Shown here: in pieces, positions 33,448-42,407 of the stretch
Numbering within the stretch: the stretch's first letter is position 1
Layout of the letters: the number at the start of each line of letters is the position of its first letter
IMG/VR virus record: IMGVR_UViG_3300031555_010858
Span: 138,637 to 202,636 of that record
DNA length: 64,000 nt
Direction: 5' to 3' (one strand)
Source of the DNA: a virus
Lineage: Duplodnaviria > Caudoviricetes
The notes under the pieces: model-generated
Told to the model about the DNA's origin: nothing
What the model saw: the letters and a program-made list of their open reading frames with translations, nothing else
The model's database searches: none
Translations under genes and position numbers: made by a program

Positions 33448-34386
33448 CTATCTATAAAGATTTCTTAACATTTTTTCTCCAGATTTTTCTATTATAGGTT
33501 CTAATTGCATTTGATTAAACATTCTATCAGCACCTCTTCTAACTGTATTAACCATAAATATAAAATATACCATAGATTCAAGACAGAATGGTGCAGCTTC
33601 TCCATACATAGAAATATATGTATATAAATAGTTTCTTAGTTGTAATTTTCCTTCAAATCCTAAATGTAGTCTTTCATCACCTAATGCTTGTATAAATGTA
33701 CTTATATCTTGATAAGCTTCTTCATCAACTATAGCATCTACTTCTTGTAATGTATAAGGTGATACACGATTTGCTATTTTAGTTCCCACATTAAGTATAT
33801 ATTCATCGTTATCTATTCCTAATACATTTTTTAAATAAAATTTAGATGCTAAAAATAATACTTTACCTTCTCTTGTAGTATCTAAGTTAGTATTAAACAT
33901 TTTATTTATTGGTTTTATAAATATATTAGCATACATCAATGCACCTTGTTGTCTAACTAAAGTATCATTTTTTACTGCATTATAATTATCTGCAAAGTTT
34001 TTAGCTAAATATGCACTTTCTAATAAAGTATATAAAACATTACCTCTTATATTTAATAATCCATCAGATCTTTTACCACAGAATGGATTTAAAAATATTA
34101 TAACCTTATGACCCATTTGCGAAGGTACTAATATAAAAGGCATTAATTTTGATAACTGAACATTATCAGCATATATTAATTCTATTCTTCCTTCTTTAAA
34201 TTCAGTTAATACTCTTTGTTTTAATAAAGATTTTTCATAGTTTTTTATATATACAAACTGTTCTAATAAATCTTGTTCAGTATATCTTTTACCACTTGAG
34301 GCAGCATCATTTATTTTACTAGTTAAAGTATTTCCACCTAGGTTTTTAAATAAATATGTACTAGTTATAGGTTTATATCCTGCCAT
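33448..34386 (-). CDS. Hypothetical protein (late-type promoter)
   Basis: ATG at 34386 after SD AAGGAG; AACA-N6-TA at 34426-34437. Confidence 0.75.
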   Translation of the reverse strand: MAGYKPITSTYLFKNLGGNTLTSKINDAASSGKRYTEQDLLEQFVYIKNYEKSLLKQRVLTEFKEGRIELIYADNVQLSKLMPFILVPSQMGHKVIIFLNPFCGKRSDGLLNIRGNVLYTLLESAYLAKNFADNYNAVKNDTLVRQQGALMYANIFIKPINKMFNTNLDTTREGKVLFLASKFYLKNVLGIDNDEYILNVGTKIANRVSPYTLQEVDAIVDEEAYQDISTFIQALGDERLHLGFEGKLQLRNYLYTYISMYGEAAPFCLESMVYFIFMVNTVRRGADRMFNQMQLEPIIEKSGEKMLRNLYR

Positions 34387-34425
34387 AAACTGTATCAACT
34401 CCTTTATATTTATTTAGCTTAATCT

Positions 34426-34437
34426 TACTAAATTGTT
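34426..34437 (-). promoter_or_regulatory. AR9-type late promoter AACA-N6-TA
   Basis: AACA-ATTTAG-TA. Confidence 0.6.
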
Positions 34438-34444
34438 TTAGCAT

Positions 34445-34488
34445 AAAAAATATAGACAGTTGGTATTTTCAGATACCAACTGTCTATA
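34445..34488 (-). terminator. Intrinsic terminator
   Basis: TATAGACAGTTGGTAT / ATACCAACTGTCTATA 16-bp stem with U6 on minus; no protein gene ends here. Confidence 0.75.
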
Positions 34489-34638
34489 CAAAATTAAATA
34501 TGAGTTTATGGGAGGTTTTTGGGTTAAGTTGTTCATTGAAAATGAACGTACCGTCCTAACCCAAAGTCAATTATTAACAACTTATTTTTCCACTCCTCCC
34601 TTTGGAGGGAGTCGTTTCGTTAATTAATGCTTTGCATT
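34445..34638 (-). ncRNA. Candidate ~190-nt structured small RNA
   Basis: Own AACA-N6-TA promoter (34638-34649), three GC-enriched stem-loops, then a 16-bp terminator stem with U6; no convincing ORF. Confidence 0.55.
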
Positions 34639-34649
34639 AATAAGTTGTT
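34638..34649 (-). promoter_or_regulatory. AR9-type late promoter AACA-N6-TA heading the candidate sRNA
   Basis: AACA-ACTTAT-TA. Confidence 0.55.
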
Positions 34650-34736
34650 GTACTGTTGATAATTTATAATACACTTTTTATAACATTTAATTCATATAAT
34701 AATTGATACAATTAAATGAAATTATAATTTTTTACT

Positions 34737-34748
34737 AACATTATGATA
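34737..34748 (+). promoter_or_regulatory. AR9-type promoter AACA-N6-TA
   Basis: AACA-TTATGA-TA upstream of the nuclease operon. Confidence 0.6.
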
Positions 34749-34775
34749 AATTGAATATTAAAAGGAGGAATAATT

Positions 34776-35108
34776 ATGAAAACGACATTTACATTATTCA
34801 AAGAAGTTTTTGGAGATGAGAAAATATTTTTATATATTGAAGAATTACCTGAAGAAAAGACTTATTATATAAAAGTAGAAGGTGATATTATAGAAGAAGA
34901 ATTAAGTAAAATATCATTACCTGATAGATTAAAAGATGACTTACGAGGAGATATAGTAAATATAGTTAAAGGTTATAATATAATGATGAGTGGGAAAATA
35001 TATAACGAACAAAATAATGAATTATGTAAAGAATATTTTAGGTTTGCTTTAAAAAAATTTTGCCAATTACATGGAAGTTTTTATAAATTTAAAGAAGAAC
35101 TTATATAA
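34776..35108 (+). CDS. Hypothetical protein
   Basis: SD AAGGAGG; first gene of the nuclease operon. Confidence 0.7.
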   Translation: MKTTFTLFKEVFGDEKIFLYIEELPEEKTYYIKVEGDIIEEELSKISLPDRLKDDLRGDIVNIVKGYNIMMSGKIYNEQNNELCKEYFRFALKKFCQLHGSFYKFKEELI

Positions 35109-36973: not shown

Positions 36974-37058
36974 ACTGAATGATAAAATTGTATTTTAAAT
37001 ATAACAAATAAAATAATTAAAAATATGATTTTTTTAAATCGAAAGGAGATATGAGTTT

Positions 37059-39005
37059 ATGGAGAATATAAATTTATCACCAACGACAATCCATGGAGAT
37101 GGATCTATGTCAGGAAACAATTTAATACAAACTAATGGGAAAAATAAATTTTTAGATAATTATAATAGAATGAAAAAATCTGATACGGAGCAATTATTAA
37201 TGGGATTACCTGAATTTGTAATTAAGGATATGGTTTTATATTTTTTATTAGATGAATATCCAAAAAGAAATAATTACATTACAGGAGTTTTAGAAGTGTT
37301 CGTAAATCAATTGAATTTGAAAGATATAAAGGACGTTAAAATATTTGATATGGTGCAATGGTGTAAAACTGCAATAGAGGCAAGAAATAAAGGAATATGT
37401 TCGGGATATGCATTTTTAGATTATTGTGATACAGGAGTAGATAAAGAAATAGGGTATTTAGATTTAATGAAACATGTTAAAAATGAATTACCTATAAGTG
37501 AATATTTAACAGGTATGACAGATGAAGATATGTATAAATTTTTATCAGAGTCAGCTTTTAATTATATGGTAAATAGAATAACAAAGAATAAATTTTTATT
37601 TGAACAATGTGAAGATTATGAAGCATTACAAGCTACAATTGATGGATTAAGAGAAGGTAAAGACGTTGAAGAAGAATATCTTAATCTTAAAAAGAAAATA
37701 GAAAGAAATAGAGAAAAATATTATAGAATAAATCTTGGAAGTAAAGTTGGTAAAAGTGCTTTAGAAACAGGATTTACAGCAAACTTAAATGAAGAAGAAT
37801 GTAGAGATGAAAACCAAAGAAATTTACAATTACAAGTAAATGGTTGTAATAAATTTAAATTTGGTCATCGTTGGTTAAATATGATAACTGGTGGTGGTTT
37901 AGAATCAAAACAATTAATGGTTTATGGAGCACCTTCAGGAAATGGTAAAACTACAATGATGATAAGTTCTGCAATAGATATGGCATTATATAATCCACAA
38001 GTTAAACATGAACCAGGTTTAACTCCATGTATATTATATATATCTGCAGAAACAGGTGTTGAAGATATAAAAGGAAGATATATTAAAATGTTAACAGGAA
38101 CTGATATAACTTGGGAAGATCCGTTAACAAGAGAAAAAATGAAATTAACTGACGAAGAGATAGAAAATGAATTAGTTGAAGCAAGTAGAATATTATCAAG
38201 ACATACACCAACTAAAATAAGATTTATACAAGTACCAAATAACTCTTATTCTAAAAATGAAATAATAAGAGATATAGAAATATTAAGAGAGTCTGAAAAA
38301 TTACAAGTAGTAGCAGTAATAGCCGATTATATAAAAGGTTTCAGACCTGTAGAAAATCATGCAGAAAACAGAATAAGAATAGATAATATAACTTCAGATT
38401 TACGTGCTTTAGCAATAGAATGTGACGTAGCAGTTATAACTGCATCACAAGTTAAAGTTGAAATGAGTAATGAAGTATTTAAAGCAAGAGGAAAAATGAA
38501 TACAAGTGTTATACCTAGAGACTGTCCTGAGACAGTATTCTCTGAATCAAAAGGTGTTGTTGAATGTGCAGATTTCGCTTTAGTATTTGCACAAACATCT
38601 GAAACATATGAAAGAGATGAATTATCAGATTCAATACATTTTACACATTTAGAAGCTCTTGTAATAAAATCAAGAGCAGGGAAACATAATGCCGCAAGAT
38701 GTTTTATACCTTATGTTGAAGGAAGTCAAATAGCATTCCAAAAAGATGCTGATTTATTAGATGAAAATGGAAAACCAGTATGGTTAACAGTTAAAGAGTT
38801 ACAATTTAAAGGAGATAAAGAAGAATTAGAAAAACATAGTAGTAAGAAAAATAATAATTCTTCTTCATTATTTGCAAATGCGGCTAGAAAGAAACAAGCG
38901 ACAATAACACCAGATTGTACATTAGGAAAAGAAACAAATGTTTTAGATTCACTACCTGAAGCTGAATTTGGTAACCCAGCTTTAGCTGGTATGATAGCAG
39001 CTTAA
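37059..39005 (+). CDS. DnaB-like (SF4) replicative helicase
   Basis: Walker A GAPSGNGKTT, YISAE, IADYI, TASQ and KSR arginine finger; long divergent N-terminal region. Confidence 0.85.
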   Translation: MENINLSPTTIHGDGSMSGNNLIQTNGKNKFLDNYNRMKKSDTEQLLMGLPEFVIKDMVLYFLLDEYPKRNNYITGVLEVFVNQLNLKDIKDVKIFDMVQWCKTAIEARNKGICSGYAFLDYCDTGVDKEIGYLDLMKHVKNELPISEYLTGMTDEDMYKFLSESAFNYMVNRITKNKFLFEQCEDYEALQATIDGLREGKDVEEEYLNLKKKIERNREKYYRINLGSKVGKSALETGFTANLNEEECRDENQRNLQLQVNGCNKFKFGHRWLNMITGGGLESKQLMVYGAPSGNGKTTMMISSAIDMALYNPQVKHEPGLTPCILYISAETGVEDIKGRYIKMLTGTDITWEDPLTREKMKLTDEEIENELVEASRILSRHTPTKIRFIQVPNNSYSKNEIIRDIEILRESEKLQVVAVIADYIKGFRPVENHAENRIRIDNITSDLRALAIECDVAVITASQVKVEMSNEVFKARGKMNTSVIPRDCPETVFSESKGVVECADFALVFAQTSETYERDELSDSIHFTHLEALVIKSRAGKHNAARCFIPYVEGSQIAFQKDADLLDENGKPVWLTVKELQFKGDKEELEKHSSKKNNNSSSLFANAARKKQATITPDCTLGKETNVLDSLPEAEFGNPALAGMIAA

Positions 39006-41936: not shown

Positions 41937-42407
41937 ATGAGCCAATTAAATAATAATGTAAATAATAATAATGTACAAGGAACAGGAAACAAAGTAGCAG
42001 AAGAATTAAGACAAATGAAAATAGAAAGACAACAATTAGACAAACGTGACAAAATGATCAGATTTAGATGTGATCATAAAGATTCTCATGGAAGACCTGC
42101 AGTACAACCAGGTAAAGAAGATGGAACTCTTGTTTGTAGAATTTGTGGAACAGTTATAAATGCTAGAGTACAAACAACAGTAGAGGTAGATCGTAAACTA
42201 CGTGAAGTTTTAAATATAATAGAAAGTATCAAAATAGCAAGTAATTCAGAATTAACTCCAAGCTTAGCTAAGATAGAAGAAGGTGTTGATTCATTATTAG
42301 CTCTTTATGAAAAAGTTATCCTTAAACAAGGAAATGCTAATAAGAATAAAGGAAATAACAACAACAACAATCAAAGAAGAGCTGCATACGGAAGTAGCAA
42401 GCTTTAA
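41937..42407 (+). CDS. Putative zinc-finger protein with Asn-rich termini
   Basis: CDH...CRIC motif; strong SD; both promoter types upstream. Confidence 0.6.
   Translation: MSQLNNNVNNNNVQGTGNKVAEELRQMKIERQQLDKRDKMIRFRCDHKDSHGRPAVQPGKEDGTLVCRICGTVINARVQTTVEVDRKLREVLNIIESIKIASNSELTPSLAKIEEGVDSLLALYEKVILKQGNANKNKGNNNNNNQRRAAYGSSKL

Follow-up and report, generated by a model that had tools for sequence, protein, structure and literature searches.

What RNA, if any, is made from the folded stretch in the divergent intergenic region at 34387-34775, and what would it do in the phage? The initial annotation had read the stretch as a small trans-acting RNA with a promoter and a terminator of its own and with switchable pairings. 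We followed up this proposal in the window, that is, the whole 64,000-nt stretch of DNA analysed here, which forms the final 64 kb of the 202,636-bp IMG/VR virus record IMGVR_UViG_3300031555_010858, as well as in the remainder of that record and in its relatives. Judged by comparative sequence analysis, the element is a previously undescribed, strongly conserved folded RNA that occurs in 3–4 copies per genome in giant AR9-like phages of the ruminant gut.

The carrier phage and its neighbourhood

The sequence identifies the phage carrying the element as an AR9-like jumbo phage, and DNA of this phage is contained in bovine gut and faecal metagenomes. The virion structural protein encoded downstream of the element shares 21–25% identity with proteins of AR9, PBS1, Staphylococcus jumbo phages and Listeria LPJP1, while the neighbours on the plus strand encode a PD-(D/E)XK exonuclease, a metallophosphoesterase and a DnaB-like helicase. 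The phage also encodes a β′-like RNA polymerase (RNAP) piece and a homologue of the AR9 promoter-specificity subunit gp226, located outside the window at genome C1:4698-6197 (+). A direct search of the genome with AR9 gp226 returned no homologue; it was detected only by way of a relative, whose protein is 23% identical to AR9 gp226 and 90% identical to that of the present phage. At the element, a search for tRNA and tmRNA genes found none, and a DNA similarity search against phage records returned only AT-rich noise. Inside the element, contigs from bovine gut metagenomes carried the plus-strand variants T>C at 34588, G>A at 34604 and G>A at 34441, together with a 1-base deletion at 34606; these differences are natural strain variation. 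The segment 18000-22000 of the window exhibited a G+C content of 0.35–0.37 and a strong negative AT skew, compared with a G+C content of 0.25–0.30 elsewhere.

A folded element on the minus strand

All parts described in the initial annotation could be located on the minus strand, namely the AACA-ACTTAT-TA motif (34649-34638), the hairpin AAUGC-AAA-GCAUU (34638-34626), a C-rich/G-rich stem (34615-34592), the stem UUUGGGUUA/UAACCCAAA enclosing GUUCAUU/AAUGAAC (34565-34521) and a terminator with a 17-bp stem (34489-34450) followed by a T run. The segment UAAGUUGUU (34584-34576) does complement both an upstream (34649-34641) and a downstream (34533-34525) sequence. The structure of the stretch exceeds chance: its 193 nt reached a minimum free energy (MFE) of –56.4 kcal/mol compared with –32.5 ± 4.1 kcal/mol for dinucleotide shuffles (z = –5.76), and 0 of 200 shuffles folded as well. 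The conserved element starts at least 10 nt upstream of the start given earlier, at 34659, and a promoter-like box reaches to about 34720. Its core comprises about 140 nt and the present copy about 210 nt. The parts, including the helices termed P0 to P3, are compiled in Table 1.

Table 1. Features of the element and its immediate surroundings (window coordinates)
Feature	Position	Strand	Basis or remark
Virion structural protein gene, phrog_21032	33448..34386	-	downstream of the element
Separate late-promoter motif AACA-ATTTAG-TA, serving the virion gene	34426..34437	-	motif list; arrangement shared with orthologues
Strong intrinsic terminator (17-bp stem, 6-nt loop, T run)	34445..34489	-	
Copy-specific 3′ tail	34490..34530	-	not kept in orthologues
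P3 hairpin GUUCAU(U)-loop-(A)AUGAAC	34531..34547	-	6/6 pairs covary
Linker, A/U-rich then purine-rich (..UGGGUUAGGACGGUAC)	34548..34575	-	
P1 3′ strand AUAAGUUGUU	34576..34585	-	read in the initial annotation as a copy of the template strand
P2 hairpin AC-GA-[CUCCC ... GGGAG]-GA-GU, invariant tandem G.A/A.G internal loop	34592..34615	-	
P0 hairpin UAAUGC-AAA-GCAUUA, stacked directly on P1	34625..34639	-	
Late-promoter-type motif AACA-ACTTAT-TA	34638..34649	-	34649-34640 form the P1 5′ strand
5′ leader UCAACAGUAC, probable start region of the long transcript	34650..34659	-	predicted
Conserved AT-rich promoter-like region	34660..34720	-	upstream alignments of 13 and 26 copies
Divergent AACA-TTATGA-TA motif ahead of the gene starting at 34776 (+)	34737..34748	+	genome position 173373

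Copies, relatives and database searches

A DNA search revealed a second copy in the genome at 22.5 kb (C1:22459-22591, +; locus L212), which is 78% identical to the first, and a listing of promoters exposed a third at 67.9 kb (C1:67895-68031, +; locus L214). Immediately downstream of this third copy are an early promoter and an RNAP β-like gene (phrog_3015), and the P3 hairpin of the copy is degenerate. A covariance model built from six sequences detected exactly three copies in the present record. Four fragmentary relatives yielded one to three copies each, and two records that are more distant, of 203 and 228 kb, yielded four each. Related IMG/VR records were reached via the virion protein and DNA patterns, and further copies came from a metagenome scan; altogether, 26 distinct sequences were collected, including those on metagenome contigs. 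Four syntenic copy types occupy conserved positions, namely before the virion protein gene, before a small gene (encoding a DNA-binding protein in the present genome), before the RNAP β-like gene and before an unknown gene that is followed by an amidase gene. The fourth copy type is absent from the present record, which is 82% complete, and present in a near-identical relative.

No Rfam family matches the element, either at gathering or at permissive E-value thresholds. The window gave no match at the gathering threshold, the region 34200-34900 gave none to 6S RNA at E ≤ 10, and the matches that appeared at permissive thresholds were chance hits on the terminator hairpin; the models of phi29 pRNA and of other phage RNAs in Rfam were not matched. 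A covariance-model search of AR9, vB_BpuM-BpSp, Listeria LPJP1 and Staphylococcus Machias detected no member (best E 0.09), and none of the 63 loci obtained by scanning GTDB, with one genome per species, for the P1 pattern matched the model. Searches of IMG/VR with the first 14-base pattern and with a looser P1 pattern returned matches that were nearly all chance. Two runs labelled RNA-Seq, one of which is probably DNA, contributed scattered contigs only.

Two look-alikes were set aside. The Kiritimatiellae MAG JAGCMU01 (yak rectum) contains an unrelated repeat of about 150 nt in 7 copies on at least 7 contigs (loci L381, L394, L397, L404, L421, L430 and L441), in which the arms AAACAACTTCTTAA ... 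AAAAAGTTGTTT surround two GC-rich hairpins; this repeat shares P1 words and was rejected as a family member, as it fails the covariance model. A borderline model match of 26 bits (L119:6108-6248; IMGVR_UViG_3300028898_000252, 390,884 bp) has the same P1 words and a similar layout on a much larger phage contig. It may represent a distant relative or chance and was excluded from the 26 sequences.

Covariation and fold

The structure is maintained in the 26 collected sequences. Four helices (P0, P1, P2 and P3) were supported on the model-based alignment, with standard pairs in 96.4% of 730 cells compared with 31–48% for slid-partner controls. Double changes occurred in 17 of 29 pairs, and the observed covariation was reached by 0 of 500 shuffles. 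The alignment used for these pair counts was fitted to the covariance model, and each sequence was therefore also folded alone: P3 was present most often in the single-sequence MFE folds (23 of the 26 members), followed by P2 (about 21) and P1 (18). A structure-blind run (MAFFT/RNAalifold) recovered only P1, because insertions and deletions misalign the hairpins.

P1 is formed by AACAACUUAU/AUAAGUUGUU with the conserved core AACAACUU/AAGUUGUU. Eight of its ten pairs never vary in the 26 sequences, and one variable pair switches between A-U and C-G in exact step (13:13). In distant copies, P0 consists of AAGC/GCUU or AAAC/GUUU stems with GAAA, GGAA or GAUA loops. P2 can be written as R-Y-G-A-[4-5 bp]-G-A-R-Y, its tandem G.A being invariant; double changes were observed in all of its pairs (7/7), the outer pair switching between A-U and G-C. 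The junction nucleotides are variable in sequence and length. As to the nested stems proposed for the 3′ part, the inner one corresponds to the covarying P3, whereas the outer linker–tail pairing UUUGGGUUA/UAACCCAAA rises only weakly above shuffles. It was rejected as a conserved helix: although present in the MFE folds of 25 of the 26 members, it comprised 12.4 pairs as observed versus 9.2 in the tail-shuffled controls, with a mean z of –1.5. A pairing of the P1 3′ strand with the 3′ side of P3, alternative to P1 itself, is available in about 4–5 of the 26 members.

A U-tract follows P3 in 12 of the 26 members and is absent in the present copy; P3 itself is thus predicted to be the terminator in about half of the members, and the present copy and several others have a further hairpin terminator. 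G.U cells outnumbered A.C cells (15 versus 7). Since this excess, the invariant tandem G.A and the terminators agree, the RNA was assigned to the minus strand.

Promoter motifs and predicted start sites

Transcription in AR9-like jumbo phages is carried out by two non-canonical multisubunit RNA polymerases. The AR9 late promoter has the consensus AACA-N6-T(A/G) (PMC5312081). In the present genome, 69 of the 391 occurrences of this motif (17.6%) are intergenic, in 7% of the genome, compared with 4–11% for control words, and 52 of these intergenic sites face the start of a gene no more than 120 nt away. In its extended form, the late consensus of this genome reads AACAA...TAA, and the motif in P1 fits it. 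A downstream complement accompanies only the three family copies among the 69 intergenic late-type motifs and none of the other 66. The AACA-ACTTAT-TA motif that was read earlier as a promoter provides the 5′ strand of P1, the best-conserved helix. Because the motif is this strand, the folded RNA must start upstream of AACAAC; a transcription start at the base of the 5′ hairpin, as originally predicted, could not be the sole one, as P1 needs sequence upstream of it.

Upstream of P1, every copy exhibits a conserved AT-rich sequence that includes a TATAAT/TAAAAT-like box, whose end is separated from the helix by about 15 nt; in the present copy the box reads TATTAT/TATAAA, at the same distance of about 15 nt. 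Most copies (paralogues) additionally show GTAAA..AAATTTCA..TATATTAT or GTAAA..AAATTTCA..TAT(A)TTAT, the upstream box differs among copy types, and a TCAACA box in the 5′ leader is kept in most copies. An early-promoter consensus, GTAAAAAGGTnAAATTTCAATTA-TATATTAT-AAAAGTG, recurs about 15 times in intergenic DNA. Written out over about 35 nt it reads GTAAAA(A/C)GGTnAAATTTC(A/G)ATTA-TATATTAT-AAnAGTG, for example at about 41844 of the window (genome 180480), and it is close to the AR9 early consensus AAATATATATTAT-N6-G (PMC5312081). At genome 21343 and 180480, the promoter regions are almost the same over about 80 nt, and in each case AACATAGAAATG faces the region from the opposite strand. By its sequence, the upstream region of the copies resembles a variant of the phage early promoter. 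Applying the spacing rule of AR9, we predict that the RNA probably starts about 10 nt before P1, at about 34659. As the motif embedded in P1 agrees with this extended late consensus, a second, late start predicted at 34638 within P1 is plausible.

The initial annotation had further presumed a uracil-reading RNAP, and this premise was weakened. The non-virion RNAP (nvRNAP) of AR9 reads the single-stranded template strand 3′-UUGU-5′ in a pocket (PMC9209446). The present phage carries a ThyA-family gene (PF00303, 222 bits; genome C1:111179-111985, +, outside the window), whose product could make dTMP or a 5-modified pyrimidine, and no dUTPase or ThyX was found in the phage genome. Moreover, the thymine-excluding V206 of AR9 gp226 has Q as its counterpart in the alignment with the homologue. 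Because of the ThyA-family gene and the change of V206 to Q, plain uracil DNA in the present phage is doubtful.

The 3′ tail and possible targets

Several attributes ascribed to the 3′ part turned out to be peculiar to this copy. Among the switchable pairings, the one with the upstream complement stands, being P1 itself, whereas the one with the downstream AACAACUUA and the pairing GGGAGG/CCUCCC are copy-specific. The same applies to the C-rich tail with its exposed anti-Shine–Dalgarno-like CCUCC. The second AACAACUU (34533-26), the CCUCCC and a complement of the helicase start (34498-34511) are all situated in the 3′ tail, and the 40-nt segment between P3 and the terminator is unalignable among orthologues. 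Searches for a conserved phage-encoded target of the P1 3′ strand and for a complement of the linker in the phage genome found none; the gene at 41937 has AACAACUU in its ribosome-binding region, but this is not retained in its orthologues.

Proposed role of the RNA

We propose that the element belongs to a new phage family of non-coding, structured RNAs, in which each copy would form its own transcription unit and the RNA would most likely act in trans, bound to protein; we assign this reading a probability of about 0.5. The conserved AT-rich promoter, which resembles the early, virion-RNAP type, would start the RNA about 10 nt before P1. The 5′ domain folds into a three-way junction that is closed by P1 and carries P0 and P2, followed by the purine-rich linker and P3; the stronger terminator of the present copy lies 40 nt beyond P3. 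Late in infection, the late-promoter motif inside P1 is probably active as well, which would give rise to a 5′-shortened isoform with an unpaired AUAAGUUGUU strand. While the comparison establishes the family, its fold, its copy number and the lack of coding, we infer from these features the start site, that there may be two isoforms, and that the RNA could act in trans as a regulatory RNA together with a protein partner.

This assignment rests on the arrangement of the copies and on the location of their invariant positions. The genes following the copy types are unrelated (virion protein, DNA-binding protein, RNAP β-like protein, and an unknown protein followed by an amidase). Each copy is followed by its own terminator and then by a consensus promoter, early or late, of the next gene. 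The same holds for the present locus, where a separate AACA-N6-TA motif for the virion gene follows the terminator, in line with the original view of a non-coding, structured, terminator-ended RNA that is not the leader of a protein gene. No reading frame is conserved among the 26 members, and invariance at the sequence level is found in the duplex and in the G.A motif, not in a single-stranded seed. Because the downstream genes differ and have promoters of their own, no open reading frame is conserved and the invariance resides in a duplex, a trans-acting, protein-bound RNA is favoured over an mRNA, a riboswitch or a simple base-pairing small RNA.

Alternative explanations

Since all copies are co-oriented with the next gene, a role in cis on the transcribing polymerase is possible. 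The folded RNA could modify or sense its own polymerase, by put-like antitermination or by attenuation, and set the read-through across P3 and the terminators. The location of every copy just upstream of a co-oriented gene, with one or two terminators following, is consistent with such a leader, and so is the ability of the P1 3′ strand to pair instead with the 3′ side of P3 in some copies. This alternative pairing is, however, limited to a few members, every downstream gene has a consensus early or late promoter of its own after the terminator, and these genes are functionally unrelated. The junctions vary in sequence and length, unlike those of ligand-binding aptamers, and no match to a riboswitch or known cis leader was obtained in Rfam. 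We therefore consider a leader function unlikely. A different significance would attach to P1 if it were a deliberate RNA copy of the late promoter (3′-UUGU-N6-A-5′) that titrates the non-virion RNAP of the phage in the manner of 6S RNA. The early long transcript would keep P1 closed, the late non-virion polymerase would start inside P1, and the free 3′-UUGUUGAAUA-5′ of the shortened late RNA would mimic the template strand and titrate, or feed back on, that polymerase. P1 is the exact RNA form of AACA-N6-TA and the sole part invariant in 26/26 sequences; the single-stranded 3′-UUGU-5′ read by AR9 nvRNAP (PMC9209446), the gp226 homologue and β′-like subunit encoded by the phage and the copy adjoining the RNAP β-like gene would all suit a decoy. 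The full-length RNA, however, buries the motif in a perfect duplex, its overall fold is not 6S-like and the uracil-DNA premise is doubtful. Promoter function and pairing could also explain the invariance of P1, and a decoy role appears decidedly improbable.

At the level of DNA, the four dispersed units might serve as origins of replication at which DNA synthesis is primed by the transcript, in the manner of oriF and oriG of T4 or RNA II of ColE1. Four dispersed copies per genome at conserved positions, each with a promoter and then a structured transcript, would be in keeping with this, and the present copy adjoins the exonuclease, phosphoesterase and DnaB-like helicase genes. The other copies, however, are not beside replication genes, neither iterons nor an unwinding element was observed, and the GC skew in the window turns near 22–26 kb, not at 34.5 kb. 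As the G.U pairs and the tandem G.A favour a folded RNA as well, we regard an origin as very unlikely. The helicase gene also figures in an explanation confined to this copy, in which the 3′ tail would act as an antisense RNA against the DnaB-like helicase mRNA, pairing with its ribosome-binding region. A perfect 14-nt complement (tail 34498-34511 versus helicase start 37050-37063) spans the start codon, and 1% of shuffled targets attained the RNAduplex energy of –27.2 kcal/mol. For the orthologous RNA and helicase start of three related phages, however, 39–71% of shuffles matched the pairing, and the tail is not conserved, which makes such a function highly improbable. The suggestion that the transcript encodes a 15-aa peptide from a UUG start, in the manner of type I toxin loci, has been practically discounted. 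The frame is open for 15 codons here and for 14–40 codons in 9 other members, but it meets a stop after 1–7 codons in 15 of the 26. The stretch LGRYVH shared between members follows from nucleotide conservation, the short ATG frames of the paralogues lie in a different register and the Shine–Dalgarno spacing is not consistent.

Comparison with known systems

In the literature examined, no regulatory RNA of the AR9-like lineage has been described. The family provides a concrete RNA candidate in these phages, and the helix that equals the late-promoter motif links it to their transcription programme. If the RNA merely marked promoter–terminator modules, it would still help to annotate giant phages from the ruminant gut that have not been cultured. 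Should the decoy prove true, it would constitute a 6S-like decoy for a non-canonical, template-strand-reading phage RNAP, encoded four times per genome.

The motif of the element matches the AR9 late promoter exactly (PMC5312081, PMC5449584, PMC9209446), as it does the extended AACAA..TAA form preferred in the present genome, and the parallel extends to its enrichment upstream of genes in the present phage and to the encoded gp226 homologue. In the element, however, the motif lies inside an RNA helix, its N6 bases are invariant and it is complemented 60 nt downstream. The likeness to 6S RNA (RF00013) consists in a small non-coding RNA of which a conserved part copies a promoter recognised by RNAP, so that a decoy is conceivable. 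Whereas 6S RNA is a long duplex with a central bubble, the element is a three-way junction plus a hairpin; its promoter copy is fully base-paired, it has no Rfam match and its polymerase would be a non-canonical phage enzyme. The put RNAs of HK022 are, like the element, multi-copy, promoter-proximal phage RNAs with two folded domains ahead of terminators, but put acts in cis on the host RNAP and has no terminator of its own, and no similarity in sequence or structure was established. Conserved structured small RNAs are also known from phiKZ-like jumbo phages, namely sRNA005 of 201phi2-1 and the phiKZ RNA upstream of gp182 (PMC11512511). These RNAs and the element are each short, structured and conserved among related giant phages, and they share an early terminator and a position just upstream of a virion or tail gene; the phiKZ-like RNAs have a start of their own, as is predicted for the element. 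The element differs in its lineage, being AR9-like with a Gram-positive-type host, and showed no sequence relation to them; it alone has 3–4 paralogues per genome and a helix that doubles as a promoter motif. We regard the element as being of the same general kind as the known small RNAs of jumbo phages.
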